Part shown: positions 1 to 12,912 of the stretch, piece by piece
Layout of the letters: every line of letters begins with the position of its first letter
Position numbering within the stretch: position 1 is the first letter of the stretch
Source of the DNA: Escherichia coli
GTDB taxonomy: Bacteria > Pseudomonadota > Gammaproteobacteria > Enterobacterales > Enterobacteriaceae
Reading direction: 5' to 3' (one strand)
DNA length: 12,912 nucleotides
Assembly: GCF_003334305.1 (NCBI RefSeq)
Contig: NZ_QOWS01000042.1
Translations under genes and position numbers: made by a program
Notes under the pieces: model-generated
The model's database searches: none
Told to the model about the DNA's origin: nothing
Seen by the model: only the letters and a program-made list of their open reading frames with translations

Positions 1-1125
1 CCAGCCTGTTGGCGGAGTGGCTGAAGGCCACGGAACAGGCACCCCAACCGGTAATGCAGAGCCTTCTCCTAAACCAAGGTATGTGAGAAGACCAGCTACA
101 TCCTTTCCACTCAAATTGGTAAGCGTATTGTCCAGCGGTTGTTTACCTGCCAGCGCATTAAGCATTGTCGTGGCAAAGTTCGGATCATTCCCCAGTGCCG
201 CCGCCAGTTCGTTCAGTGTATCCAGTGCAGCAGGTGCAGAACCCACCATTCCTGCAATCGCCGATTTCACAAAAGCCGTAGTGGCAATCTGTGTATTGTT
301 GACCGACTGCGCCGCCGTGGGGGCTGTTGGCGTTCCGGTGAGTGCCGGACTCGACAACGGTGCTTTTAGTGCCAGCGCATTGTTAATGGTGGTACTGAAA
401 TTCGGATCATTGTTAATGGCTGCGGCTATTTCTTTCAGCGTGTCCAGCGTGGCTGGCGCACCATTAATAAGGGCCGTCAGTGCCGCCTGTACAAACGCAG
501 TGGTCGCAACCTGCGTGGTATTATTCCCCGCCGCTGGCGTTGGCGCTTTGGGGGTTCCGGTAAATGTCGGGCTGGCTTTTGGCGCGTACTGTGAATGCGG
601 GTCCGGTGCGGCAAGATGTTTTGCCATCTGATCATCCGCGTAAACCTTCAGCTCCAGTGCCTTGTCATCCACATACTTGCGGGTTGCCAGCACTACAGCA
701 GGGTCGATTTTCAGGGTGATATTGTCCGTGCTGCTGGTAATCAGCACCATGCGCACGGTCTGAGTGCGCCCGCTACCTTCAGCCAGTTGCGGCTTATAGC
801 TTTCCGGGCAGTTGCCCACGGCAATCAATGCCCCGGACTCATCAAACAAGCCCACTTCACGTATCCACCAACCGCCCTCGTTTTCAGGGATCACCTGTTC
901 GGCAATAATCTGGCTGCTGTTCTGCGGGTCGATATAAAGCATATTCAGCGCAGCCCGGCGTTTCTCATTTACCAGTGCCGTCTGCTTTGCGTCCGGCGTT
1001 GGCAATACTCCACCGCCATCGCCCACCGCCATATGGGTAATTTTTAGCGGCACACCGAGCGCGGCGGCGCTGGCAAGTTTCGCCGCGCCAATATCCGTCA
1101 GCAGGGTATAAAATTTTGTGCTCAT
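1..1125 (-). CDS. H: Tail fibre protein, P2 gpH-like; N-terminal ~375 codons only, C-terminus lies beyond the window start
   Basis: Hand translation of the minus strand in the frame ending at 1125 is open to position 1. It begins MSTKFYTLLTDIGAAKLASAAALGVPLKITHMAVGDGGG, resembling the P2 gpH N-terminus as recalled, and contains ...NDPNFATTMLNALAGKQP. The ATG at 1125..1123 overlaps the stop of gene I (ATGA). Missing from the ORF track only because it has no stop inside the window. Confidence 0.85.
   Translation of the reverse strand, partial: MSTKFYTLLTDIGAAKLASAAALGVPLKITHMAVGDGGGVLPTPDAKQTALVNEKRRAALNMLYIDPQNSSQIIAEQVIPENEGGWWIREVGLFDESGALIAVGNCPESYKPQLAEGSGRTQTVRMVLITSSTDNITLKIDPAVVLATRKYVDDKALELKVYADDQMAKHLAAPDPHSQYAPKASPTFTGTPKAPTPAAGNNTTQVATTAFVQAALTALINGAPATLDTLKEIAAAINNDPNFSTTINNALALKAPLSSPALTGTPTAPTAAQSVNNTQIATTAFVKSAIAGMVGSAPAALDTLNELAAALGNDPNFATTMLNALAGKQPLDNTLTNLSGKDVAGLLTYLGLGEGSALPVGVPVPWPSATPPTGW
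142..585 (-). repeat. Tandem duplication of a ~74-codon (222 nt) tail-fibre repeat unit inside H (units 364..585 and 142..363), diverged copies
   Basis: Both units translate to SPxxTGTPxAPTxxxxNNTQ(I/V)ATTAFVxxAxxxxxxxAPAxLDTL(K/N)E(I/L)AAAxxNDPNF(S/A)TTxxNALAxK. Nucleotide similarity is visible, e.g. 'aaattcggatcatt' near 166-185 and 398-412. Confidence 0.7.
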
Positions 1126-1727
1126 GGATTCACTCTCATTGTGTCAATAACATGGACCGCCCCGCCTTCATGCGCGGTGCCACCGGAAATAATCGTTTCG
1201 TTGATATACGGATAGATCGTGATTTCTTCGCCAAGATAGCTGGCGGCTCCCACCCAATGCGGGCCGCTGGTCTGCAGATTGATGGACATGCCGATCATGT
1301 GGCGGCTACATGGTTTGGCATCGCTTATCAGTCGCTCAAGTTCCAGATAGGTATCTTCAGTGATGCCCTGGTCCTGCACGCCGATATCCAGGCGAAACGT
1401 GCCCGGTGTTTCTCCGGTCTGCCACCACTCAATAATGCGGATCAGGAATCCGAACGGCTCCACCACCCGCCGCACGGCACTGGTGGTCCCTTTATGCTGA
1501 TGAATATAAAAAGCATCCTTCACCACCTGGCGCTTGACGCTTTCAGTCCAGCCCTCGTCCCAGCGATCCACAGAGAACGCCCAGGCGAGATAAGGCAGGA
1601 AACTGACCGGACAGGTTGCCGGATTCCACAAGTCACGAAGCGGCACCTGCAGATCAGAAATCCCGCTGCAGGTTTGCGCCAGTCGGCGCTCCAGTGGTGT
1701 TGAACCCGGTGGCAGCAGACTATTCAT
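1122..1727 (-). CDS. I: Baseplate assembly protein, P2 gpI-like
   Basis: 201-aa ORF with ATG at 1727..1725; motifs such as WNPxTCPxxxLPxLAWAFSVDRWDExW and PGTFRLDIGV resemble P2 gpI as recalled. Stop TGA (1124..1122) overlaps the H start. Confidence 0.85.
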   Translation of the reverse strand: MNSLLPPGSTPLERRLAQTCSGISDLQVPLRDLWNPATCPVSFLPYLAWAFSVDRWDEGWTESVKRQVVKDAFYIHQHKGTTSAVRRVVEPFGFLIRIIEWWQTGETPGTFRLDIGVQDQGITEDTYLELERLISDAKPCSRHMIGMSINLQTSGPHWVGAASYLGEEITIYPYINETIISGGTAHEGGAVHVIDTMRVNP

Positions 1728-2628
1728 CCGTTCCTCCGTTGGTTACGCTCCACTGCGTACATGATGCCGCCTGTGTTTTGTTCAGGACCACATCCGCCAG
1801 AGGAGAAGCCAGCTCCACACGCTGCACCCCCTCAACATGCAGGGCGGCAAAAATGGCGCTACGGCGAATATCCCGACCAAGACGCGTCTGACTGGCGATG
1901 TACTTCTGCAGGCTGGCTTTTGCCGCTGCCATTACCGGCTCTGCTTCCGGTCCAGGATAGAGAAAAATGGTGGCTTCCACGCGATACGGGATGATTTCTG
2001 CGCTGCGAACCGTAAGACGGTCAGCCACCGGGCGGACGTTCTCACTGTTCAGAGCTTTTTCCACCACGTCCAGCAGGTCTTTTTCTGCAGTTCCATCGCC
2101 TTCGCGGCTAAGGACAGTCAGCACCACCTCTGCAGGTGCCGGGCTGGTTGCACTGGCATCCGCCACCCGACCGTCGGCGCTTCGGGCATGAAATTCATAA
2201 GCTGCAGTTGGCCCCGCAACAGAAAGCCCTTCAAAGGCCGCAGGCACACGCAGGCGCAACGCTTCATCGCTTTCCATCACAGCTGCAACGGGCGGCACAG
2301 CATCATTATCAGCAGGCGTCACCGTCAGGCGTGTCACGTTGTAGTTGGCAGCGAGCTGGTCAAGATCGCCGCCCATCGCGTAAGCCACCATCACCGCCTG
2401 CGCGGCTTCGTTAATGCGCTGGCGCAGAAGCAACTCACGGTAAGCGTTCTCCTGCAACAATTTAGTGGCGGGTTCAGATTCCAGTTCCAGCGTGCGGATC
2501 ACTGCTTCCTGCTCATCTTTCGGATGAAGCGCCACAAATTCTGCCTTGCGTTCGGCAAGCAGCGTCTCAAAGTCCGGCACATCCACAATCTGCGGTGCAG
2601 GCAACTGCGAAAGGTCAATCACTGCCAT
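1720..2628 (-). CDS. J: Baseplate protein, P2 gpJ-like
   Basis: The ORF track extends to a GTG at 2667, but the ATG at 2628..2626 is preceded by AGGAG with a 6-nt spacer and gives 302 aa starting MAVIDLSQLPAPQIVDVPDFETLLAERKA, the length recalled for P2 gpJ. It overlaps the W stop. Confidence 0.85.
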   Translation of the reverse strand: MAVIDLSQLPAPQIVDVPDFETLLAERKAEFVALHPKDEQEAVIRTLELESEPATKLLQENAYRELLLRQRINEAAQAVMVAYAMGGDLDQLAANYNVTRLTVTPADNDAVPPVAAVMESDEALRLRVPAAFEGLSVAGPTAAYEFHARSADGRVADASATSPAPAEVVLTVLSREGDGTAEKDLLDVVEKALNSENVRPVADRLTVRSAEIIPYRVEATIFLYPGPEAEPVMAAAKASLQKYIASQTRLGRDIRRSAIFAALHVEGVQRVELASPLADVVLNKTQAASCTQWSVTNGGTDE

Positions 2629-2974
2629 TCTCTGCTCCTGTTGATACGGAAAGGGACACAGGCACACCGTTATTCCGCCGCCCGGTCAGCTCCACCACCA
2701 TTGAACCGTCAAAATTGCTGTTGATGGTGATGGAATCCAGCGTCAACCGTGGCTCCCAGCGACTCAGCGCCACATACACTGCCGACATGACCTGCAGGCG
2801 TAATGCCGGATTTTGTGGCTGATCTATCAGTGCCGACAGCAGGGAACCATATTCCCGGCGGGCAATACGGCTACCCTGCGGTGTCAGCAGAATGTCCCGC
2901 ACCGACTGGCGCAGATGATCAATATCAGTAATGACTTTGCCGCTGGTATTGTTCATCCCGCTATAAAGCGTCAT
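2615..2974 (-). CDS. W: Baseplate protein, P2 gpW-like (gp25-type)
   Basis: 119 aa starting MTLYSGMNNTSGKVITDIDHLRQSVRDILLTPQGSRIARREYGSLL, similar in length and sequence to P2 gpW as recalled; its ATG (2974..2972) overlaps the V stop (ATGA). Confidence 0.85.
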   Translation of the reverse strand: MTLYSGMNNTSGKVITDIDHLRQSVRDILLTPQGSRIARREYGSLLSALIDQPQNPALRLQVMSAVYVALSRWEPRLTLDSITINSNFDGSMVVELTGRRNNGVPVSLSVSTGAENGSD

Positions 2975-3549
2975 ATCGGGCCTCCGGTTGTATCGCCGCC
3001 TTTCAGGACGCCAGTATGCTGATGCGCATCAACCACGATCCCGTTAGAACTCATCGCTCCGCCGCCCTGGGTAACGCCACCATTGATCACCACTTCGCTG
3101 TTAATGCGCGTGCGGTCAGCCTCCAGTACAAACTCACTGGTTTTCATGGTGATGTTGTCAGCAGCCTCAATGACCATGGATTTGATGCCCCTGACATACC
3201 AGCGCCCGGTGGCGGGTTCGTATTCAAACCAGCCACCGTCAGGATGTTCTGTCACGCAGGCGTCCGCCGACGTCGACGGTGGTGCGAACTGATTCGAATA
3301 GACAGCGGGCAGCGCAAAGGCGGTTTCCAGATTGCCGCCCAGACTCAGCAGCACCACCTGCTCACCTTCCGATGGTCGCCACCATGTACGGGCATTCCCG
3401 GCACGCAGCGTCAGCCAGCTGATCCAGTTGGTTTCAAGCTCGCCCGTTTTCACCCGGCAAAGCCAGTTTTCCCTGTCCACTTCGGTGACTACCCCTGTGC
3501 GGATCAGGTTGGTGATAAGGCGCATGATTTCGGTTAATTGTGCGTTCAT
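2971..3549 (-). CDS. V: Baseplate spike/hub protein, P2 gpV-like
   Basis: 192 aa starting MNAQLTEIMRLITNLIRTGVVTEVD, with RTWWRPSEGEQV and a C-terminal ...HQHTGVLKGGDTTGGPI resembling P2 gpV as recalled; ATG at 3549..3547. Confidence 0.85.
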   Translation of the reverse strand: MNAQLTEIMRLITNLIRTGVVTEVDRENWLCRVKTGELETNWISWLTLRAGNARTWWRPSEGEQVVLLSLGGNLETAFALPAVYSNQFAPPSTSADACVTEHPDGGWFEYEPATGRWYVRGIKSMVIEAADNITMKTSEFVLEADRTRINSEVVINGGVTQGGGAMSSNGIVVDAHQHTGVLKGGDTTGGPI

Positions 3550-3595
3550 AGGGAAAGGTTGCCATCAGGGGAAGAAAGGCGGCAGTGCTGCAACT

Positions 3596-3613
3596 TGTAT
3601 CAGTGCTGATACA
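3596..3613 (-). promoter_or_regulatory. Candidate late-promoter activator site (Ogr/Delta-type TGT-N12-ACA dyad) upstream of V
   Basis: Sequence TGTATCAGTGCTGATACA, part of the perfect palindrome TTGTATCAG-TG-CTGATACAA, lies between the S stop (3618) and the V start (3549). It matches the TGT-N12-ACA consensus of P2/P4 late promoters and sits where the P2 V promoter is expected. Confidence 0.5.
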
Positions 3614-3617
3614 AAGA

Positions 3618-4064
3618 TCACCCCGCCAGCCATTGCAGAATCATGTCGCGGGTCATTGCCTCAACATCATCATTTACACCCAGAAGGCGACGCTCTGCGT
3701 AACGCACCTCCGGTCCCTTACGACTGACGCGATCTCGCAGGCCGTAATGGTGAACGCGGGCAATGCGCTGCACCTTGCCTTCAAACTGCACGCTGGCAGA
3801 GTCGGTGCTGGCGGCAGTTTTCAGGTATTTTGTGGTGCGCAGCTTTGCAAACATCTGACGTTTGATGCGCCCCTTCTTGCTGCGTGCTGTTACCCTGCGC
3901 GGTTCATAACTGCTGCCATCTGGATTGCGCTGCATCCTGATATTCTGCTGCTGTGTCCGGCGCAGTTCCTGCGCCAGCTGGCGCATCATGCGGCTTCTCG
4001 TGGCTGGTTCCAGATTCGCCAGCAAGGCACTCAGCCAGTCGTCCACCTTCTGCAGTTCAGCCAC
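3618..4064 (-). CDS. S: Tail completion protein, P2 gpS-like
   Basis: 148-aa ORF in the P2-equivalent position between R and V. The only start in frame is GTG at 4064..4062, preceded by GGTGA, and it overlaps the 3' end of R by 8 nt. Called mainly on synteny and size. Confidence 0.75.
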   Translation of the reverse strand: MAELQKVDDWLSALLANLEPATRSRMMRQLAQELRRTQQQNIRMQRNPDGSSYEPRRVTARSKKGRIKRQMFAKLRTTKYLKTAASTDSASVQFEGKVQRIARVHHYGLRDRVSRKGPEVRYAERRLLGVNDDVEAMTRDMILQWLAG

Positions 4065-4488
4065 GTTTCACCGTCCACATTTCTTCAGGTTCATCAGGTT
4101 CCGCTATAGCTTCAACACTCGACACACTACCGTCAGTGCTGACCAGCACACGCTCCGTCAGTTGCAGGTTCAGGCTGATATCACAGACATCGTTGCGCAG
4201 AATATCCACCTCAAAGGTGAATAGTTTTTCCCGTAACGCCGGGTTATTGATGGCATCGGGCTGGTTATCCCTCAGCCACAGCAAAACCGGGGCCATCAGC
4301 AGATTCTGGTCGCCGCTGAAATCCTCAATCACCGCGTTCAGGGTGTAACGGTACTCCCACGACATGGAGCTGGCCCCCGTGGCAACCAGCGAACCGTTAT
4401 CCACAAACAGATGCAGTTTGTCCGGGTTATTGCGGACATAAGGCACCGCTTTATTGAGGGCGTGGCGCAGGGATTGTGGTTTGTTCAC
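4057..4488 (-). CDS. R: Tail completion protein, P2 gpR-like
   Basis: The ORF track start is a TTG at 4509. The GTG at 4488..4486 is preceded by AGGAG with a 7-nt spacer and gives (M)NKPQSLRHALNKAVPYVRNNPDKLHLFVDNGS..., resembling P2 gpR as recalled. It overlaps the lysC 3' end. Confidence 0.75.
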   Translation of the reverse strand: MNKPQSLRHALNKAVPYVRNNPDKLHLFVDNGSLVATGASSMSWEYRYTLNAVIEDFSGDQNLLMAPVLLWLRDNQPDAINNPALREKLFTFEVDILRNDVCDISLNLQLTERVLVSTDGSVSSVEAIAEPDEPEEMWTVKRG

Positions 4489-4741
4489 TGTTTTGCTCCT
4501 GACACGCAATAATCATGTCCACTTTGTCTGCACAGACCGCCCAGGCGGCCTCCGTTTCATCCAACAACGCGTTCAGATCACCGTTAGTGCGCGGCTCTGC
4601 CTGATCCAGCCGACACGGTGTCACTCGCGGACAACCACTGACGATAAGCTGCACCTCCGGTGAGCGTCGGACGTTCCCGCAGCCGGATAATGTCAGCAGG
4701 CAAAGGAGTATCAGTCCAGCGGCGTAAATCCTCGTTCTCAC
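4451..4741 (-). CDS. lysC: Outer-membrane spanin lipoprotein (LysC/Rz1-like), starting inside lysB in a different frame
   Basis: 96 aa, the length recalled for P2 LysC. The N-terminus MRTRIYAAGLILLCLLTLSGC has a positively charged n-region, a hydrophobic core and a lipobox (L-S-G-C), and the rest is Pro-rich. GTG start at 4741 is preceded by GAGGA. Confidence 0.7.
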   Translation of the reverse strand: MRTRIYAAGLILLCLLTLSGCGNVRRSPEVQLIVSGCPRVTPCRLDQAEPRTNGDLNALLDETEAAWAVCADKVDMIIACQEQNSEQTTIPAPRPQ

Positions 4742-5012
4742 GTTTCAGTTCCTCGATCCGGTGTTGTCGTTGTCTCAGCAGCGCGCTGGTCTGTTCTGCT
4801 TCGGCATAGAGCCGCGCCTGCTCCCGGTTATTGGTTTCAGTCAGAATGGACAGGCTGATAAGCTGGCTGTTGCTCTTTGCCAGTGCCTGGCTTTTGCTCT
4901 GCAGCTCGTCTGCCTGCGTGCTAATGGTCTGGCTGGCATCAGCCAGCCGCCACGTCTGCCAGCCCAGCGCCGCCAGTAATAACGCCAGCACAACCAGCAG
5001 CAACCGGTTCAT
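4584..5012 (-). CDS. lysB: Inner-membrane spanin (LysB/Rz-like)
   Basis: 142 aa with an N-terminal membrane anchor (MNRLLLVVLALLLAALGW) followed by a charged, coiled-coil-like periplasmic region. Its ATG (5012..5010) overlaps the lysA stop (ATGA). Confidence 0.75.
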   Translation of the reverse strand: MNRLLLVVLALLLAALGWQTWRLADASQTISTQADELQSKSQALAKSNSQLISLSILTETNNREQARLYAEAEQTSALLRQRQHRIEELKRENEDLRRWTDTPLPADIIRLRERPTLTGGAAYRQWLSASDTVSAGSGRAAH

Positions 5013-5386
5013 GCTGCTACCTGTTGCGCCATCTGATTACGGGTGATCCAGAAGGCAATAACGGTCAGTAGATAAAAGACCAGGGTAATAGCCCACCCCG
5101 TCCAGGCGAGACTTACAACAATCAGCAATCGCATCACCCAACTGATAAATACGTTTTCTTTTCGGGTAATTGTCTTCAGTAAAGATGCCCTTAACTCCTG
5201 CCAGAGCGGGCCATTCTTAATTAACGCAGCCAGTGCTACCGGAATTACCGCCCATGTCAGCAAACAGGCTACCCAAACGCCGGACGCTGCCAGTACCGGA
5301 AAAATCCCCTGCGGATACACCATTGCTGCGATTAACAGCGCCATCCATAACATCAGAAACAGTCCGCTGATTAATTTCTTTTTCAT
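5009..5386 (-). CDS. lysA: LysA-like membrane protein (lysis regulator; proposed antiholin in P2)
   Basis: The ATG at 5386..5384 (MKKKLISGLFLML...) is preceded by GGGAG and lies 1 nt after the K stop. The product is about 125 aa with four predicted hydrophobic segments. The GTG at 5458 given by the ORF track would overlap K and is less likely. Confidence 0.65.
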   Translation of the reverse strand: MKKKLISGLFLMLWMALLIAAMVYPQGIFPVLAASGVWVACLLTWAVIPVALAALIKNGPLWQELRASLLKTITRKENVFISWVMRLLIVVSLAWTGWAITLVFYLLTVIAFWITRNQMAQQVAA

Positions 5387-5387
5387 T

Positions 5388-5900
5388 TCAGTTTGCTCCC
5401 TGTAAACACCAGACCATCTCCCGCGCACGGCGGTTATCCAGCCCCTGATTAAACACACCTTTTACATAAACCCAGCGCGGCAACTGTCGGCACGCATCCG
5501 CCCAGCGCCGCTGATTGAGCAATTTCACCAGCGTGGAGCTGCAGGCATTGCCCGTCCCCACGTTGAAGGCAAACGACACCGTAGCGTCATACACCTTCTG
5601 TGGTGGCAGTTGCTTCACACACCTTTCCAGTACCCGCTCCACACGCAGCACGTTGGAGATCAGCCCTTCTGCTGCCTGTCGTTCCGTGATTGTTTTGCCG
5701 GGAATGACGCCCGATGTATTACCAATGCCGTCGGTCCAGACACCCGCGCTGCACTGATACGGCTGCAGACGACAGCCTTCGTAATCAGCAATCAGTTTCA
5801 GCCCCTCCACGGAGGTGTGAAGCTGCTGAAAACCCGGCAGCGTGGCAGCAATAGCCAGCACGGCCCCGACAAGGCAGCGTTTAACGATTGATGGATTCAT
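5388..5900 (-). CDS. K: Endolysin, GH24/T4-lysozyme-like, with an N-terminal signal-anchor-release-like segment
   Basis: 170 aa. The motif E41-x8-C50-x5-T56 (YEGCRLQPYQCSAGVWTDGIGNT) matches the E-8-D/C-5-T catalytic triad of T4-type lysozymes. Residues ~8-24 (RCLVGAVLAIAATLPGF) form a weakly hydrophobic Ala/Gly-rich stretch. A strong RBS (GGGAGG) precedes the ATG at 5900. Confidence 0.85.
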   Translation of the reverse strand: MNPSIVKRCLVGAVLAIAATLPGFQQLHTSVEGLKLIADYEGCRLQPYQCSAGVWTDGIGNTSGVIPGKTITERQAAEGLISNVLRVERVLERCVKQLPPQKVYDATVSFAFNVGTGNACSSTLVKLLNQRRWADACRQLPRWVYVKGVFNQGLDNRRAREMVWCLQGAN

Positions 5901-6096
5901 AGTCCTCCCGCGAGATCTGCCCGTCGCGCAGAAGCTGGTAGGATTTGTGTTTGTAGTACCAGTTGATAGCCAGCATCAGTACACCAATCATCAGACCGCC
6001 CAGCGTTGAGGCATCCTTGATGGACAAATCGCCCAGCCAGGCCAGCACGACGGCGATGCAATACGTGATAAAGGCGCTGATTCGCTCAAGCGTCAT
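5881..6096 (-). CDS. Y: Small holin (two predicted transmembrane segments, charged C-terminus)
   Basis: 71 aa, MTLERISAFITYCIAVVLAWLGDLSIKDASTLGGLMIGVLMLAINWYYKHKSYQLLRDGQISREDYESINR. It occupies the P2 Y position immediately upstream of the endolysin and overlaps the K start by 20 nt. Confidence 0.7.
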   Translation of the reverse strand: MTLERISAFITYCIAVVLAWLGDLSIKDASTLGGLMIGVLMLAINWYYKHKSYQLLRDGQISREDYESINR

Positions 6097-6099
6097 AAT

Positions 6100-6303
6100 T
6101 CAGTCCCATAGCTGGACGGTCTGCACGGTGGTGGTGGTCGGAATGTCCGGCAGCTCCACCTGCAGCCCGTGAGGTAAAAAGGGGCCGTATTCGGCAAGCC
6201 CCGGATTTGCCTTCAGTACCTGCTCCGTGACCCCCTGCGTGCGCCCGTAATGACGCCAGCAAAGCGCGTCCACCGTGTCATACTGATGCGCACGCACTTT
6301 CAT
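6100..6303 (-). CDS. X: Tail protein X (P2 gpX-like, LysM-like)
   Basis: 67 aa, the length recalled for P2 gpX, with ...YGRTQGVTEQVLKANPGLAEYGPFLPHGLQVELPDI... Its ATG (6303..6301) overlaps the L stop (ATGA). Confidence 0.8.
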   Translation of the reverse strand: MKVRAHQYDTVDALCWRHYGRTQGVTEQVLKANPGLAEYGPFLPHGLQVELPDIPTTTTVQTVQLWD

Positions 6304-6767
6304 CAGATAAGCTCCACTGTGCAGTGCGGCGCATCCTGCACCCGGCTGATGGCCCAGCGGGCGTCACGCCACAAATCACCGCTTGCTTCCGCCAGTTCCT
6401 CGCCCCGCTTCACACCGGACGCCGTGGCGTCATAGTCCTGGTATCGTTCGTTGAGCATGGCGCGTGCCCAGCAGTAAACCGCGTTGAAATAGTGCTGAAT
6501 GCGCTCACTTTTGCCGTCCAGCTGTTCCGCCGGAACTTCTGCCAGCGAGGCATACCCCAGCATCTGCTGGCGTCTGCGAAACTCATACAGCTCTGCGTTG
6601 ACCTCCGAAATTGCCGACAGCGCAACCTGCTTTAAACGCGGCTGCGTCACCGTGCCGTCAGTGCGCATCACGCTGCGAAACTCCGACAGGTCCACATCAG
6701 GCCAGAACGGCGTATTCCTGATGATTTCCGCCTGTTCTGGTGCCTGTTCTGGCGCAACAAACTTCAT
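6303..6767 (-). CDS. L: Head completion/stabilisation protein, P2 gpL-like
   Basis: The ATG at 6767..6765 (MKFVAPEQAPEQAEIIRNTPFWPDVDL...) is preceded by AGGAG with an 8-nt spacer and gives 154 aa. The longer ORF-track version starts at a GTG at 6830 inside a GC-rich hairpin and is judged an artefact. Confidence 0.8.
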   Translation of the reverse strand: MKFVAPEQAPEQAEIIRNTPFWPDVDLSEFRSVMRTDGTVTQPRLKQVALSAISEVNAELYEFRRRQQMLGYASLAEVPAEQLDGKSERIQHYFNAVYCWARAMLNERYQDYDATASGVKRGEELAEASGDLWRDARWAISRVQDAPHCTVELI

Positions 6768-6832
6768 GCTGCTTTCTCCTGAAATAGAGGGCGGTGGACG
6801 GGGTTTTGATGTAGCAGTGCCTTTCGCCACCC

Positions 6833-6857
6833 CGTGCCGCCCGTGCGCGGGGGCACG
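6833..6857 (-). other. GC-rich stem-loop in the M-L intergenic region (about 10 bp of stem, no following U-tract)
   Basis: cgtgcc (6833-6838) pairs with ggcacg (6852-6857), and cccg (6840-6843) pairs with cggg (6848-6851), with loop tgcg. It lies in the only sizeable intergenic gap (~95 bp) of the O-S gene string. Confidence 0.4.
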
Positions 6858-6862
6858 TTCTG

Positions 6863-7513
6863 TCAGCGGCTGTCATTGCGCAGTCTGCGCTCCAGCTGCT
6901 GTTTGTCTTTTTTCACGCCACAGCGGGGATCGAGCTGTAACGCATGGTTGAGATGATTAAGGGCGGACGCCGGATTGCTTTCACTCAGGACAGCGCCAAT
7001 CGCTTTATGCAGACGCGCCCGTGACTGGTCCGGCATATCCAGACCGTCTGTCAGCTCCAGCGTCTGCAGCAGCGGATCGGCATCAAAGCCGGTGGCGGCA
7101 AGCATTGCGCTCTGCGCCGCGTCTGCCATTTCCTCTGCCAGCACGGTCTGCACGTTGCGGTTACCCAGCGGCATCACCCAGCCATGACGCAGGGCATGAC
7201 GCCCGATCTCCAGCGCCCCTGCATAATCTCCGGCATCAATGCGCCACAGCATCACGTACATCAGCACGTCATCCTGTTGAGCGCCTCCGGCAGCCAGAAC
7301 GCCCTCCGCCCAGGCGGCATATTTCGGCAGCAGCTCCACCTTGATTTCCGCTTTTTTGACCGTGGACTGAACGCCCTTGAGACGGCGGCGGTCTTCCGCC
7401 AGTTGCAGCAGCATCAGGTCATAGCCCGACGCGTGGCGAACACTGCCGCCCTCGCGGGCGGCCTGTTCAGCCTGAACGCGCAGGCGATGCTGCCGTGCGG
7501 GACTCAGGCTCAT
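6863..7513 (-). CDS. M: Terminase small (endonuclease) subunit, P2 gpM-like
   Basis: 216 aa starting MSLSPARQHRLRVQAEQAARE, with GAQQDDVLMYVMLWRIDAGDYAGALEIGRHAL resembling P2 gpM as recalled. ATG at 7513 is preceded by GGAG and lies 3 nt after the N stop. Confidence 0.85.
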   Translation of the reverse strand: MSLSPARQHRLRVQAEQAAREGGSVRHASGYDLMLLQLAEDRRRLKGVQSTVKKAEIKVELLPKYAAWAEGVLAAGGAQQDDVLMYVMLWRIDAGDYAGALEIGRHALRHGWVMPLGNRNVQTVLAEEMADAAQSAMLAATGFDADPLLQTLELTDGLDMPDQSRARLHKAIGAVLSESNPASALNHLNHALQLDPRCGVKKDKQQLERRLRNDSR

Positions 7514-7516
7514 GAA

Positions 7517-8575
7517 TTACGCTCCGGTTTCTGCTGCGGCGGCGCTGAAGTCACCAATCTGGATGTTTTCCACCAGTGCAGCGCAGCGATAGTCCTCAAC
7601 CACATAGGCTTCGTTAACGGATTCAAAATTTTCAATCCGGTCACGTTTCGGGTTGTCGATAACTGAACGGCGGCGGGTATCTTCCTGCCAGTAGATGGAC
7701 AGGTTATCCAGACGGGTGATCAGCAGCGCATTCGGCGGGAAGAACGGCGCACGCACCGCCTGCAGGCCACCCATGCGTTTCTGACTGATGATCATATCGG
7801 CAGCCAGTTTTTCACTGTTTTCCTGCTCTTTGTTGACCAGCGGGAAATACTTGTCAGACAGCAGTTCACGACCGCAAATCACCACCAGATCGTCATCGTC
7901 CTGGTAGACCACATCGATAAGCTCATTGACGGCATCCATCACTACGGCGTCCAGGTTGGCATATTCGCCACCTTTCCCGACTTTCACCGCGCCCGGTGTG
8001 GTTTCACCGCCCGTGGTGGTGCTGCCCATGACGTGATCCGGTGCATCCTCACGGATTTTCTGCAGCCAGCCTTTGTTCACATCCTGCAGCAGCGGGTTTT
8101 CGCTACGGTTGGAGGTTTTCGCACGCTTCACGCCGTTAAAGCCGATCATGATGCGGTCCAGTGCCTGACGTTTCACGATGGCGTTACGGATACGCACCTG
8201 GAAATCCTGAAACTTCGCCCACAGGTCCAGCTTCGCGTAGGTCAGCACCGTGTCAAAGTTGGTCTGTTCGCATTTGTATTCCACATCGACCATCAGCGTC
8301 GGATCGACAGGTTCTCGCTCTTTCGCGGTGGTATCAGTGGTTCCGGCAATGGTGCTGCCAACACCCAGCCCCAGCAACTGACCAGACTGCTCAGTCACTG
8401 GCGTGACGTTAATCAGCGTCAGGAAAGCGGCGGACTGCTGGATCTGGTCTTCCAGCGTCTGCTGCACGGACGGCTCTACGGTGAACTTGCTGGACAGTTC
8501 TTCAACTGCCACACCGTTCAGACGCGCCAGCTGCTGCAGGTAAGCGTTAAAAGCAAAGCGGGTATTCTTCTTCAT
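7517..8575 (-). CDS. N: Major capsid protein, P2 gpN-like
   Basis: 352 aa in the position between O and M, the same size class as P2 gpN (~357 aa); ATG at 8575..8573. Confidence 0.9.
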   Translation of the reverse strand: MKKNTRFAFNAYLQQLARLNGVAVEELSSKFTVEPSVQQTLEDQIQQSAAFLTLINVTPVTEQSGQLLGLGVGSTIAGTTDTTAKEREPVDPTLMVDVEYKCEQTNFDTVLTYAKLDLWAKFQDFQVRIRNAIVKRQALDRIMIGFNGVKRAKTSNRSENPLLQDVNKGWLQKIREDAPDHVMGSTTTGGETTPGAVKVGKGGEYANLDAVVMDAVNELIDVVYQDDDDLVVICGRELLSDKYFPLVNKEQENSEKLAADMIISQKRMGGLQAVRAPFFPPNALLITRLDNLSIYWQEDTRRRSVIDNPKRDRIENFESVNEAYVVEDYRCAALVENIQIGDFSAAAAETGA

Positions 8576-8591
8576 CGGGTTTTGTGCTCCA

Positions 8592-9425
8592 TCAGCAATT
8601 GGTCAGAGTGTCAGCGGGGGCGTTACCGCCTGTTGCACGCTGGCGGTAGTCCTGGCGGCTGTCTTCATGACTCAGCTTATTCACCAGTTCGTTAAAGGCG
8701 GTCTGCTGTGCCTGCAGGGCAGTCTCCAGCTCAGACAGACGTTCTTCCTGCTCAGACAGGGATTTTTCGGTGCGTGCGCTCAGGTTTTGCTGCTCAGTGG
8801 CGACCAGCTCCACGGCCTTATGCACATCAGAGAACCGGGCATCGTCGGACTGCTCTTTTTTGGTAAACAGCGCCGTGACACGGGCAAACAGGGACGGTTT
8901 GTCCTCCTGGATTTCTTCCAGTTCGATCACTGTTTCCTCTGCGGCGGTAAAGAGATTGGCGGGATTCTGCTTGCGGTTTGCCAGCGGGTTATGGGCTGCA
9001 CTGGCGCTGAATGTCAGCATTTCCGTACCCAAACTGGCAGGGTCATCAGTGGCAGCCAGGCCGACCAGGTAGGCTTTGCCCGTATCAGCGAACTTCGGGC
9101 TGACTTCCATAGAGGTGAATAATTTCTGGCCTTTTTTCACCAATTCCACCAGGGACTCCGTTGGCTCAACGTCGGCATACAGCGCCATCTTGCCTGCCAG
9201 CGGGCCTTCCGTGATTTCTTCAGCAAACAGCGCCGTCACCTTGCCGTAACGGTTAAAGGTGCTGTCCGGGAGATAAGACTTGATGTGCTCAAGGTTAATC
9301 AGCGCGGTATACACCGCCGGGTTGTAGCTGGCTGCCATCTGTTCCAGCCATTCACGCTGGATTTCGCGTCCGTCGGTGGTGGCACCTTCCACCCCGATGC
9401 GAAAACGCTTTGCTTTCACTGTCAT
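8592..9425 (-). CDS. O: Capsid scaffolding protein, P2 gpO-like
   Basis: 277 aa starting MTVKAKRFRIGVEGATTDGREIQREWLEQMAASYNP, the same size class as P2 gpO (~284 aa); ATG at 9425..9423 is preceded by GGAG. Confidence 0.9.
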   Translation of the reverse strand: MTVKAKRFRIGVEGATTDGREIQREWLEQMAASYNPAVYTALINLEHIKSYLPDSTFNRYGKVTALFAEEITEGPLAGKMALYADVEPTESLVELVKKGQKLFTSMEVSPKFADTGKAYLVGLAATDDPASLGTEMLTFSASAAHNPLANRKQNPANLFTAAEETVIELEEIQEDKPSLFARVTALFTKKEQSDDARFSDVHKAVELVATEQQNLSARTEKSLSEQEERLSELETALQAQQTAFNELVNKLSHEDSRQDYRQRATGGNAPADTLTNC

Positions 9426-9502
9426 GAGCCGTGCTCCGTTAGAAATAACTTACTGGAGCCTTATGGTTGCGGTGATGGGGGCAGTGAAACAATGCGCGGT
9501 AT

Positions 9503-9520
9503 TTGTACCGACAACCACAC
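9503..9520. promoter_or_regulatory. Candidate late-promoter activator site (TGT-N12-ACA) in the O/P divergent intergenic region
   Basis: TGTACCGACAACCACACA is the only TGT-N12-ACA match in the 142-bp region between the O start (9425) and the P start (9568), where the P2 divergent late promoters for P and O are expected. Confidence 0.45.
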
Positions 9521-9567
9521 AAACCGCAGGCGGGGAAAGCCTTCATTCAAGGCTGTAGGTTTGTGCC

Positions 9568-11334
9568 ATGAACACCACACTGACACCCGCAGATCTCGAT
9601 CCCCGTCGGCAGGCCATGCTGCTGTACTTTCAGGGATACCGCGTAGCCCGCATTGCTGAAATGCTGGGCGAGAAAGTTGCAACCGTTCACAGCTGGAAGA
9701 AACGCGACAAGTGGGGTGACTATGGGCCGCTGGATCAGATGCAGCTCACCACCGCCGCACGTTACTGCCAGCTCATTATGAAGGAGCACAAAGAAGGGAA
9801 AGATTTCAAAGAAATTGACCTGCTGGCGCGCCAGTCGGAGCGCCACGCGCGGATCGGCAAGTTTAACAATGGCGGCAACGAAGCCGACTTAAACCCTAAC
9901 GTCGCCAACCGCAACAAAGGCCCGCGCCGTCAGCCGGAAAAGAATGTTTTCACCGATGAACAGATAGAGAAACTGGAAGAAATCTTCCATTCCTCCATGT
10001 TCAACTACCAGCGCCACTGGTGGGAAGCCGGAAAAACCAACCGCATCCGCAACCTGCTGAAGTCACGCCAGATCGGCGCGACCTTTTACTTTGCCCGTGA
10101 AGCCCTGATTGACGCCCTGCTTACCGGACGTAACCAGATTTTCCTTTCTGCCAGTAAGGCACAGGCTCACGTCTTTAAGCAGTACATCATCGACTTCGCC
10201 AAAGAAGTCGAGGTGGAGCTGAAAGGCGATCCGATGGTGCTTCCTAACGGGGCCACGCTTTACTTCCTCGGCACCAATGCCCGCACGGCGCAGAGTTACC
10301 ACGGCAACCTGTATCTGGATGAATATTTCTGGATACCGAAATTCCAGGAGTTGCGCAAAGTGGCTTCCGGTATGGCTATTCACAAGAAATGGCGACAAAC
10401 CTATTTTTCCACGCCATCCAGCCTGACCCACAGTGCTTATCCGTTCTGGTCCGGTGCGCTGTTCAACCGTGGACGCAACAAAGCTGACAAGGTGGACATC
10501 GACCTGTCCCACAGCAATCTGGCCCCCGGCCTGCTGTGCGCAGACGGGCAATACCGCCAGATAGTCACCGTGGAAGATGCGGTGCGCGGCGGCTGTAACC
10601 TGTTCGACCTCGACCAGCTGCGCATGGAGTACAGCCCGGACGAATACCAGAACCTGCTGATGTGCGAGTTCGTGGACGATCTCGCGTCCGTGTTCCCGCT
10701 CAGCGAACTGCAGGCGTGCATGGTGGACAGCTGGGAAGTCTGGACCGACTTTCATGCACTGGCCCTGCGCCCGTTTGGCTGGCGCGAAGTGTGGATCGGT
10801 TATGACCCGGCAAAAGGTACGCAGAACGGCGACAGTGCCGGATGCGTGGTGGTGGCTCCGCCAGCCGTGCCGGGTGGTAAGTTCCGCATTCTTGAGCGTC
10901 ACCAGTGGCGCGGGATGGACTTCCGCGCCCAGGCTGACGCCATCAAAAAACTGACCGAACAGTATAACGTGACCTATATCGGTATCGACTCGACCGGCGT
11001 CGGTCACGGGGTTTACGAGAACGTGAAAGCGTTTTTTCCTGCTGTCCGGGAGTTTGTCTATAACCCCAACGTTAAAAACGCCCTGGTACTCAAGGCCTAC
11101 GACATTATCAGCCACCGCCGTCTGGAGTTTGACGCCGGGCACACCGACATTGCGCAGTCATTTATGGCAATCCGTCGCGCTACCACTGCCAGTGGCAACC
11201 GCCCGACCTATGAAGCCAGCCGCAGCGAAGAAGCCAGCCATGCCGATCTGGCCTGGGCAACAATGCACGCACTGTTTAACGAACCGCTGCAGGGCGAGTC
11301 CGCCAATACCAGCAATATTGTGGAGATTTTTTGA
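9568..11334 (+). CDS. P: Terminase large (ATPase) subunit, P2 gpP-like
   Basis: 588 aa (P2 gpP is ~590) starting MNTTLTPADLDPRRQAMLLYFQGYRVARIAEMLGEK. It diverges from O and is followed by Q with a TGATG stop/start overlap. Confidence 0.9.
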   Translation: MNTTLTPADLDPRRQAMLLYFQGYRVARIAEMLGEKVATVHSWKKRDKWGDYGPLDQMQLTTAARYCQLIMKEHKEGKDFKEIDLLARQSERHARIGKFNNGGNEADLNPNVANRNKGPRRQPEKNVFTDEQIEKLEEIFHSSMFNYQRHWWEAGKTNRIRNLLKSRQIGATFYFAREALIDALLTGRNQIFLSASKAQAHVFKQYIIDFAKEVEVELKGDPMVLPNGATLYFLGTNARTAQSYHGNLYLDEYFWIPKFQELRKVASGMAIHKKWRQTYFSTPSSLTHSAYPFWSGALFNRGRNKADKVDIDLSHSNLAPGLLCADGQYRQIVTVEDAVRGGCNLFDLDQLRMEYSPDEYQNLLMCEFVDDLASVFPLSELQACMVDSWEVWTDFHALALRPFGWREVWIGYDPAKGTQNGDSAGCVVVAPPAVPGGKFRILERHQWRGMDFRAQADAIKKLTEQYNVTYIGIDSTGVGHGVYENVKAFFPAVREFVYNPNVKNALVLKAYDIISHRRLEFDAGHTDIAQSFMAIRRATTASGNRPTYEASRSEEASHADLAWATMHALFNEPLQGESANTSNIVEIF

Positions 11335-12368
11335 TGGGAAAGAGTAAGAAGAACCGCGCTGCGTCGACGAAACAGATCCAGCATAAAAGCCAGACTTCAG
11401 CCGAAGCATTCAGCTTCGGTGATCCCGTTCCTGTTCTGGACCGCCGCGAACTGCTGGACTATGTGGAATGCGTACAGATGGATCGTTGGTACGAGCCGCC
11501 TGTGAGTTTCGACGGACTGGCGCGAACCTTCCGCGCCGCCGTGCATCACAGCTCACCGATTGCAGTGAAGTGCAACATTCTGACCAGCACCTACATCCCT
11601 CACCCGCTGCTCAGCCAGCAGGCTTTTTCGCGTTTTGTACAGGACTATCTGGTTTTTGGTAACGCCTACCTGGAGAAACGCACAAACCGCTTCGGTGAAG
11701 TTATCGCCCTTGAGCCTGCACTGGCAAAATACACCCGACGCGGGTTAGACCTTGATACCTACTGGTTTGTGCAATACGGCATGACTACGCAGCCGTATCA
11801 GTTCACGAAAGGCAACATTTTTCATCTGATGGAACCGGACATCAACCAGGAGATCTACGGCCTGCCTGGTTATCTTTCTGCCATTCCGTCAGCTCTGCTC
11901 AACGAGTCCGCCACGCTGTTCCGCCGCAAGTATTACATTAACGGCAGTCATGCAGGCTTCATCATGTACATGACCGATGCAGCGCAGAACCAGGAGGATG
12001 TGAACAACCTCCGCAACGCGATGAAAAGCGCCAAAGGTCCTGGTAACTTCCGTAACCTGTTTATGTACTCGCCTAACGGTAAAAAGGACGGGCTTCAGAT
12101 TATCCCGTTGTCAGAAGTGGCGGCGAAGGATGAGTTCCTGAATATCAAGAACGTGAGCCGGGACGACATGATGGCGGCGCATCGTGTGCCGCCACAAATG
12201 ATGGGGATAATGCCTAATAATGTCGGGGGGTTTGGGGATGTGGAGAAGGCCAGTCGCGTATTTGTACGTAATGAATTAACGCCCTTGCAAAAAAGGCTAC
12301 AAGAGCTGAACGACTGGCTGGGCGAAGAAGTGATTAAATTTACGCCCTATATTCTTTCAGAAGAATAA
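11334..12368 (+). CDS. Q: Portal protein, P2 gpQ-like
   Basis: ATG at 11334 (the ORF-track TTG at 11331 is one codon upstream) gives 344 aa, the length recalled for P2 gpQ, starting MGKSKKNRAASTKQ. Its start overlaps the P stop. Confidence 0.9.
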   Translation: MGKSKKNRAASTKQIQHKSQTSAEAFSFGDPVPVLDRRELLDYVECVQMDRWYEPPVSFDGLARTFRAAVHHSSPIAVKCNILTSTYIPHPLLSQQAFSRFVQDYLVFGNAYLEKRTNRFGEVIALEPALAKYTRRGLDLDTYWFVQYGMTTQPYQFTKGNIFHLMEPDINQEIYGLPGYLSAIPSALLNESATLFRRKYYINGSHAGFIMYMTDAAQNQEDVNNLRNAMKSAKGPGNFRNLFMYSPNGKKDGLQIIPLSEVAAKDEFLNIKNVSRDDMMAAHRVPPQMMGIMPNNVGGFGDVEKASRVFVRNELTPLQKRLQELNDWLGEEVIKFTPYILSEE

Positions 12369-12376
12369 TTCCGAAC

Positions 12377-12727
12377 TTATTTGTTTCTTCTTTGTTCACG
12401 CCTTGTCTTGGCTTCGATAAGGCGTTGAGGTTCAGTGTAAAGCCGTTCTAAAAAAAGATAGGTAAAATCTTCAAGATCCTCAGCAGCAGCTTTATCCAAA
12501 ATACCTTCATGCGCTCCATCATTTCCGTCATCTTTAACGCATTCAGCTAGTTCCCTTAAAGCTTCAGGCAGTAGATGATTATCAAATAACCACTCCATTC
12601 TTAACCCTAGGCTTCTCCTTATTTTTTGCGCAGGCCCTTGCTCCCCATCAGGAAGAAGTCCTTTTGTGGCATAATCAAGGCAAAGCCTAAACATGGTTGC
12701 TGCTGCATTATAACAACCTATAGCCAA
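12377..12727 (-). CDS. Hypothetical small acidic protein in low-GC cargo next to the portal gene; possibly HEPN/DUF4145-like (speculative)
   Basis: 116-codon ORF in ~40-45% GC DNA, convergent with Q (stops 8 bp apart). The TTG at 12727 is preceded by GAGGAAGGGG with an 8-nt spacer; the first ATG is at 12694. No homologue recognised with confidence; the motif GNDGAHEG and a helical, acidic composition are the only hints. Confidence 0.5.
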   Translation of the reverse strand: MAIGCYNAAATMFRLCLDYATKGLLPDGEQGPAQKIRRSLGLRMEWLFDNHLLPEALRELAECVKDDGNDGAHEGILDKAAAEDLEDFTYLFLERLYTEPQRLIEAKTRREQRRNK

Positions 12728-12865
12728 ACATTTCGCCCCTTCCTCATATGCACTATTGATATGCTCAGGTAAGAACTCTGGTGGCTCCTCTACTGCTAAG
12801 TCTGCCGGTGATATAGGCCTAACAACCTCTGCAACTGATCCTACCCACGTAATATGGACACAGGC

Positions 12866-12912
12866 CTAAGCGAGGTTCTTGTTTTCAAATTGTTCCGGAC
12901 TGAGGCCGCCAC
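12866..12912 (-). CDS. 3' end of a further minus-strand gene that continues beyond the window end (product unknown)
   Basis: The same minus frame is open from the window edge to a TAG at 12868..12866, reading ...GGLSPEQFENKNLA*. Only 15 codons are visible, so the evidence is weak. Confidence 0.25.
   Translation of the reverse strand, partial: GGLSPEQFENKNLA

Follow-up and report, generated by a model that had tools for sequence, protein, structure and literature searches.

The window, i.e., the whole stretch of 12,912 nt analysed here (positions 1-12912), is 100% identical to a part of the chromosome of E. coli A7 (NZ_CP028767.1), and a position in it equals the corresponding position in the A7 locus L001 minus 1701. 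All genes annotated upstream of the block described below are of the P2 type and encode tail, baseplate, lysis, capsid/head, terminase and portal proteins, in agreement with the initial annotation, which had recognized only P2 structural and lysis genes up to the end of the portal gene Q. The stop codon of Q (12366-12368) is followed, eight bases on, by the stop codon of a convergent minus-strand ORF (12377-12379), and the spacer between them is too short for a terminator of the P2 tQ type. The GC content changes here from 0.563 over positions 1-12368 to 0.432 over positions 12369-12836. Since none of the 11,901 overlapping 468-nt windows upstream had a GC content below 0.487 (mean 0.565, sd 0.025), this drop amounts to about 5 sd. 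Moreover, GC3 of the minus-strand ORF is 0.29, as compared to 0.63 for the portal gene. Clearly, the compositional break and the switch of strand, both of which had been noted in the initial annotation, are real and far beyond chance.

The low-GC block had originally been thought to extend over positions 12369-12912 and to hold several genes. It exists, but it is shorter and contains the remnant of a single gene. Homology to the LF82 prophage ends at position 12836, where the right inverted repeat of an IS3 element begins, and thus the low-GC cargo in the window occupies positions 12369-12835. The last 77 bases of the window belong to IS3 (GC content of 0.51 over 12837-12912). The features of the region are listed in Table 1.

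Table 1. Features at the right end of the window (window coordinates).
Feature	Position	Strand	Basis
Portal gene Q, P2-type, conserved left flank of the cargo slot	11334..12368	+	Annotated phage portal protein, L001 13035-14069
8-bp spacer separating the stop codons of Q and of the convergent cargo gene	12369..12376	.	Sequence read
3' remnant of the RAZR-like gene, codons V81-K232 and stop	12377..12835	-	Translation identical to the LF82 protein
DUF4145 (HEPN) domain, residues 114-203 of the intact protein, wholly kept in the remnant	12467..12736	-	
HEPN catalytic motif K181-DDGNDGA-H189	12509..12535	-	Aligned with RAZR R146...N150...H154
116-aa ORF from an internal TTG (12727), RefSeq WP_072689636.1	12377..12727	-	Annotation
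IS3 right end (IRR), running 1181 bp past the window	12836..12912	-	L001 14537-15794
IS3 transposase stop codon	12866-12868	-	

The translation of the remnant, from VAEVVRPISP to the C-terminus, corresponds to residues 81-232 of a 232-aa DUF4145 protein (WP_000245245), the gene of which is intact in the LF82 prophage, where it is gp01 of phage Cartapus. At the DNA level the remnant is 100% identical to the LF82 gene up to position 12836. About two-thirds of the cargo gene (codons 81-232) are thus present in the window, and the promoter, the start codon, the zinc-finger domain and most of the linker are missing. RefSeq annotates the remnant as an intact gene despite the truncation; the 116-aa "DUF4145 domain-containing protein" (WP_072689636.1) is an artefact of this truncation, as the intact gene encodes 232 aa. 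The cos-adjacent DNA of P2-like phages is partly AT-rich and the ORF in the window is partial, as if the block could be AT-rich non-coding DNA in which an ORF occurs by chance. The probability of this is practically nil: hundreds of full-length homologues (E-values down to 1e-157) make up the 232-aa family to which the ORF belongs, with a Pfam domain and a confidently predicted fold, which rules such an origin out.

Two other differences between A7 and LF82 concern the late region upstream. A minus-strand gene of the "DNZ54_00345 family" (5009-5386), located between the lysozyme gene and lysB at the position of P2 lysA, has no counterpart in the LF82 prophage, which is otherwise collinear and has 48 bp at this site. 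Conversely, an additional plus-strand ORF of 176 aa lies between V and S in the LF82 prophage (L002 5153-5683, a site corresponding to about 3549-3618 of the window) and is not present in A7. Both sites are further small variable slots of the late region.

The slot between Q and cos

In P2, cosL (1-19), the terminator tQ (160-181) and Q (187-1221) follow each other, with nothing encoded between Q and cos, and tin and old (30684-33380) precede cosR, on the A side of cos. The order in Cartapus is cos (1-59), the DUF4145 gene (162-860) and the portal gene (869-1903). In relatives of the A7 prophage the intact cargo is a single 699-bp gene with cos about 110 bp upstream of its ATG; in LF82, the cos core GGCGTGGCGGGGATACGAG is located at about L002 14888-14906. 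As the gene lies between cos and Q in both Cartapus and LF82, the cargo occupies the Q-to-cos slot and not the old/tin slot to which it had first been assigned. The expectation that the system itself would lie mostly beyond position 12912 did not hold either, as two-thirds of the gene are in the window. A short low-GC block followed directly by cos had been named as an outcome that would speak against defence cargo; relatives do have such a block as far as its length is concerned, but it does not have that meaning.

The region nevertheless belongs to a known hotspot. Rousset et al. 2022 (PMC9122126) defined the gpA-gpQ hotspot, and WP_000245245 is already included in their supplementary Table S5, in the arrangement "hypothetical + DinI + hypothetical + hypothetical + DUF4145". 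DUF4145 does not appear in the main text of that paper. The proposal that the block is horizontally acquired cargo of a P2 hotspot was thus borne out. Like the P2 gpA-gpQ hotspot (the old/tin locus; Odegrip 2006; "hotspot #1" of Vassallo 2022), the cargo site is adjacent to cos between Q and A, variable and low in GC. It differs in that old and tin are on the A side of cos and the cargo gene is on the Q side, where P2 has only tQ, and in that the A-side flank is gone in A7, where Q is the only surviving flank of the hotspot. The slot between Q and cos can therefore be set apart from the classical old/tin slot across cos.

Location within the hotspot, between Q and A and next to cos, holds for LF82/Cartapus and for homologues of Dickeya, Serratia, Pantoea and a second E. 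coli lineage (77%, 55%, 55% and 60% identity, respectively), which lie directly downstream of the portal gene in convergent orientation. Altogether, enterobacterial homologues with 55-100% identity were convergent with a P2-type portal gene in 5/5 cases. The content of the slot is variable, as had been predicted. Of 5426 complete E. coli genomes, 1198 contain the 469 nt of the 3' end of Q, but no more than 43, A7 included, have the cargo (matches over at least 80% of a 613-bp query composed of the Q end, the 3' part of the gene and the IS3 end). The 5' part of the cargo gene is present in 39 complete E. coli genomes, and the intact gene in 39-42 genomes other than A7. In FDAARGOS_1250 the slot contains a gene for a PIN-domain protein of 353 aa (L005 2333-3394), and in UMNF18 that for a 416-aa homologue of PDC-S59 (E 1.2e-31) and a small ORF (L006 2175-3425). 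The sequence becomes homologous to that of other P2-like prophages again about 30-50 bp before cos. Only 34 records had the 3' end of Q at 95% identity or more, as compared to 43 genomes with the cargo, and the 3' end of Q seems to travel with the cargo.

In the prophage of FDAARGOS_1250, which has undergone a rearrangement of its own, the portal gene is truncated and the D gene is fused next to it. Across cos in LF82, on the A side, lies a gene for a conserved 203-aa protein (LF82_789; L002 15066-15677). In several genomes it is annotated as "valyl-tRNA synthetase", which is implausible for a phage protein of 203 aa; in LF82 RNA-seq it is the more strongly expressed Cartapus moron (log2 from 5.4 to 10.5). 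None of the LF82 genes across cos (encoding 203, 86 and 62 aa) gave a PADLOC match.

IS3 junction and the deletion in A7

The IS3 copy of A7 comprises 1258 bp (L001 14537-15794), with the terminal inverted repeats TGATCCTACCCAC.../TGATCTTACCCAG..., which align imperfectly and start with TGATC; the sequence that begins at position 12836 of the window, TGATCCTACCCACGTAATATGGACACAGG..., is the right one of them. The element is annotated as an IS3-like element with an IS3 family transposase, orfAB, with a programmed frameshift. In its length, its imperfect inverted repeats, its orfAB frameshift and its identity to the copies of other strains it is like the IS3 of E. coli, but it differs by the lack of a 3-bp target duplication, being a product of deletion or recombination: no such duplication was found at the A7 flanks (AAC/IS3/CAT). 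An identical IS3 copy (1258/1258) with the same right junction is present in strain WAT, flanked by CAT on both sides (CAT/IS3/CAT), inside an integrase-bearing island. Comparison of the flanks in both strains indicates that A7 carries a deletion junction and not a simple insertion, and the intact duplication in WAT indicates that IS3 resided in the neighbouring island before the deletion.

No homology to the LF82 prophage was found in A7 beyond IS3. The missing 343 bp (the first 80 codons and the upstream region) occur in 39 complete E. coli genomes and nowhere in A7, which points to deletion and not inversion. Thus, an IS3-mediated inversion that would have moved the 5' part of the gene elsewhere in A7 was rejected. 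Either an adjacent deletion mediated by IS3 or recombination of two copies of the element would account for the loss. The deletion removed the 5' third of the gene, cos, the remainder of the hotspot and gpA, and of the early, immunity and integrase genes nothing was left; the ssrA-side island lost its proximal part as well. Q and the replication gene A had been expected to be conserved flanks of the block; with gpA deleted, the flank on the A side does not exist in A7. What was kept is the complete late-gene block, from ogr (next to ssrA) to Q. The A7 prophage is a cryptic, non-packageable remnant with a full set of late genes and a HEPN-only pseudogene.

The late-gene set of A7 (window 1-12368 and L008 12445-20300) appears intact, with ogr, D and the tail, baseplate, lysis, capsid, terminase and portal genes, without pseudogene flags and without cos, replication, immunity or integrase genes. 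In terms of P2/P4 biology, a late-gene remnant of this kind might still supply late functions to a P4-like satellite.

Extension of the sequence past 12912 and a PADLOC search, which the initial annotation had suggested, did reveal a defence system, but one of the adjacent ssrA-side island. IS3 is followed in A7 by 660 bp of AT-rich DNA and then, about 3.5 kb past 12912, by PD-Lambda-4 (L001 16459-21268, window coordinates about 14758-19567). Gene A of this system is complete (1283 aa, 2531 bits). Gene B, for which the profile has 303 positions, is broken into two ORFs of 248 aa and 51 aa; strain WAT has the same split with the same protein accessions. PD-Lambda-4 as cargo of the P2 hotspot was rejected, as WAT carries IS3 and PD-Lambda-4 together in the integrase-bearing island, with the target duplication intact.

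At the other end of the prophage, between ssrA and ogr (L008 11268-12183), A7 encodes a 257-aa retron-type reverse transcriptase and a 57-aa ORF. The reverse transcriptase matches PADLOC RT_VI (6.6e-18) and many other RT models, and the locus may be another cargo site or a truncated retron.

Protein family and its relation to RAZR

The intact protein (232 aa) has an N-terminal Cys4 zinc ribbon and a C-terminal DUF4145/HEPN domain, which Pfam places at residues 114-203 (E 7e-7). A search of NCBIfam with it gave no match, and PHROG 1305, labelled "DNA binding protein" in PHROGs, matched at 9.5e-53. In the AF2 model, which has a confident fold, a beta-ribbon is predicted over residues 3-59 and a helix over residues 104-118. 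In our representative library, 927 representatives matched at E<=0.001 and 137 of them at E<=1e-30, the best with E 1e-157. The four cysteines of the zinc ribbon (C8, C11, C46, C49) are kept in 224-234 of 241 full-length homologues. In the HEPN domain the motif C-[VI]-[KR]-D-D-G-N-D-G-A-H is conserved, with H189 in 238/241 homologues and with lysine (157) or arginine (69) at position 181. The zinc ribbon is wholly deleted from the window copy and present in the intact LF82/Cartapus homologue, and the HEPN domain is present in the window copy.

The sole PADLOC match of the protein was PD-T7-4 (PDLC04109), a defence system described by Vassallo et al. 2022 (PMC9519451) and since renamed RAZR, ring-activated zinc-finger RNase (Zhang et al. 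Nature 2026, PMC13017515). This match was weak (E 1.2e-6, 26 bits, profile positions 39-165 of 211), and other members of the sub-family scored 15-31 bits or nothing against the same profile, which fits a sister family better than a close member of RAZR. Homology to RAZR could be shown only for the linker and the HEPN part. With a family profile of 113 sequences, RAZR (9y9c chain OA) was the top match among PDB sequences (E 5.7e-5); it was not found by searches of the PDB sequences with the single sequence or with a narrow profile. Compared with RAZR residues 16-190, as taken from the HMMER alignment, hhalign paired residues 101-220 with RAZR 77-189 (96.8% probability, E 2.7e-10), and pairwise BLASTP gave 26% identity over 136 aa of the linker and HEPN part. 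In this alignment K181, N185 and H189 correspond to R146, N150 and H154 of RAZR. The zinc ribbons of both proteins have the CPxCG...CxxC pattern in common, with no reliable alignment, in keeping with the description of this domain as the region of RAZR that varies most (PMC13017515).

RAZR (PD-T7-4; E. coli UMB1727 RRL46918.1; PDB 9Y9C/9Y6U) and the cargo protein are thus alike in several respects. Each is encoded by a single gene (219 vs 232 aa) carried on mobile elements, and each has an N-terminal Cys4 zinc ribbon (first knuckle CPHCG vs CPRCG), a linker and a C-terminal DUF4145/HEPN domain with the motif [R/K]-x2-G-N-x3-H. In contrast to RAZR, the cargo protein has about 35 extra residues between the zinc ribbon and the HEPN core, and lysine K181 in place of the catalytic arginine R146, which is essential in RAZR. 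The genomic niches differ as well: PD-T7-4 "often overlaps an integrase gene", and the cargo gene lies in the Q-cos slot of P2-type prophages. The window copy, additionally, is devoid of any zinc finger. Judging by sequence, the cargo protein shares its architecture with RAZR but belongs to a distant sister family and is not a close RAZR member. DUF4145-type HEPN domains occur in a defence context also in BxaP (PMC10799925) and Ishtar (bioRxiv 10.64898/2026.07.06.735840), but there an N-terminal DUF4145 is fused to a C-terminal HEAT-like or beta/alpha domain, and no zinc ribbon is present.

Homologues of the cargo protein in Pseudomonas, Oceanimonas and Thiodiazotropha adjoin integrases, and two of them head integron-like cassette arrays. 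The Oceanimonas (L020) and Thiodiazotropha (L021) homologues, of about 50% identity, are each the first gene beside a Phage_int_SAM_4/Phage_integrase gene. In the latter locus, small cassette-like genes (ParDE, acetyltransferases) follow the homologue, which suggests integron cassettes. In Stx/lambdoid phages, a homologue of about 25% identity is located beside HigBA and a Ren-like exclusion gene.

Proposed function of the intact gene and state of the remnant

The intact gene is expressed in the lysogen. In published RNA-seq of LF82 (PMC9928086, S1 table), LF82_788, which is CARTA_1, has a log2 value of 4.7 in LB and of up to 9.6 in other conditions (MB1/MB6), and that of the adjacent portal gene is 2.5-3.0 in every condition. 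The rise of LF82_788 with a flat portal gene indicates that its transcription does not depend on the late operon, as expected of a moron. In overnight LB cultures, its expression was about 3.3-fold that of the adjacent portal gene (25.6 vs 7.7), and it is not among the Cartapus morons named in that paper, in which a 5-fold cut-off was used (PMC9928086). A promoter scan and a relaxed scan by hand of the minus strand from the ATG to cos both failed to give a convincing sigma-70 promoter.

RAZR is inactive until it is polymerised as a 24-mer around phage ring proteins, and its triggers are the portals of T7, T3 and SECphi18 or the Erf-like Gp77 (PMC13017515). Activated RAZR cleaves RNA non-specifically, and the infection is aborted; the specificity is set by the zinc-finger domain, and R146 and H154 are essential (PMC13017515). 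Such ring-triggered abortive infection is known for RAZR Ec and Kv alone (PMC13017515). Based on the architecture of the intact cargo protein, its HEPN homology to RAZR, the retention of the catalytic histidine and of a basic residue, the mobile-element niche and the expression in the lysogen, we infer that it may act in anti-phage defence by a RAZR-like, ring-triggered abortive infection, with lysine in place of arginine as a caveat. The protein would be made in the lysogen and kept inactive until a superinfecting phage makes a large ring protein, a portal or an Erf-like recombinase. Its zinc-finger domains would then dock around this ring, and in the oligomer so formed the HEPN sites would become active; the RNA would be cut non-specifically, so that translation would stop and the infection would be aborted.

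An alternative role, in which the cargo would encode a housekeeping or regulatory nucleic-acid-binding protein (e.g., for cos packaging or gene regulation) or a counter-defence protein, appears unlikely to us. The label of PHROG 1305, the constant location of the gene by the portal/cos region of P2-like phages of enterobacteria, down to 55% identity, and a faint match of Lar_restr_allev to the zinc ribbon (E 1.7) are compatible with it. However, the cargo is present in only 43 of about 1198 genomes with a related Q, unrelated cargo replaces it in the slot, and P2 itself has nothing there. The foreign composition of the gene (GC3 0.29), its transcription in the lysogen when late genes are silent, the homologues outside P2 phages in integron-like cassette arrays, beside integrases and TA modules, and the near invariance of the HEPN catalytic histidine also argue against such a role. 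The block is the 3' remnant of one RAZR-like moron gene of a P2-like (Cartapus/Fels-2-type) prophage, truncated by IS3 and located in the Q-cos slot, and we consider it likely that the intact gene serves in defence as outlined above. As a RAZR-like gene adjoins the portal gene in five lineages and RAZR senses portal-sized rings, one may even imagine the resident portal and the zinc-finger sensor as a co-adapted pair that is inherited jointly, in which the prophage's own portal would escape recognition and foreign portals would act as triggers; the lysine-for-arginine variant of the HEPN motif could, in addition, mark a changed activity. We regard this as improbable.

The window copy is almost certainly inactive, since it has neither the sensor nor a start codon or promoter, and little of the linker; RAZR needs both protein parts for trigger binding and activation. 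A remnant that would still function, as a HEPN-only protein translated by read-through from the IS3 transposase gene or from an internal TTG and acting as an unregulated RNase, a toxin or a dominant negative, is very unlikely. The orfAB genes of IS3 are co-directional with the remnant, and their stop codon, 10 codons before the junction, shares the frame of the remnant, but at the junction neither an ATG or GTG start nor a recognisable ribosome-binding site is present. This in-frame position of the transposase stop is probably a coincidence, and we ascribe no function to it. RefSeq does annotate a 116-aa CDS in the remnant, but its product would be devoid of the first HEPN helix of the model (residues 104-118). 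Similarly, the 100% identity of the remnant to the intact gene along its length, i.e., the lack of decay, is explained equally well by a recent deletion. Moreover, RAZR depends on its zinc finger and linker to bind the trigger, to assemble into the complex and to become active, and the full-length protein shows no toxicity unless a trigger is present (PMC13017515).

The initial reading of the block as defence cargo is thus partly supported: a defence-type gene with a zinc ribbon and a HEPN domain, homologous to RAZR/PD-T7-4, does sit there, but this copy is truncated by IS3. For the window itself the finding carries little weight, as it concerns a pseudogene remnant in a decayed prophage and a hotspot described before. 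The A7 locus is, in turn, a clean case in which a deletion associated with IS3 at once inactivated a defence gene and left the prophage immobile. Additionally, the comparison defines a widespread sister family of RAZR with lysine or arginine at the catalytic position, and it suggests a likely function, that of a RAZR-like abortive-infection RNase, for the catalogued but unexplained DUF4145 "hypothetical" of the P2 hotspot.
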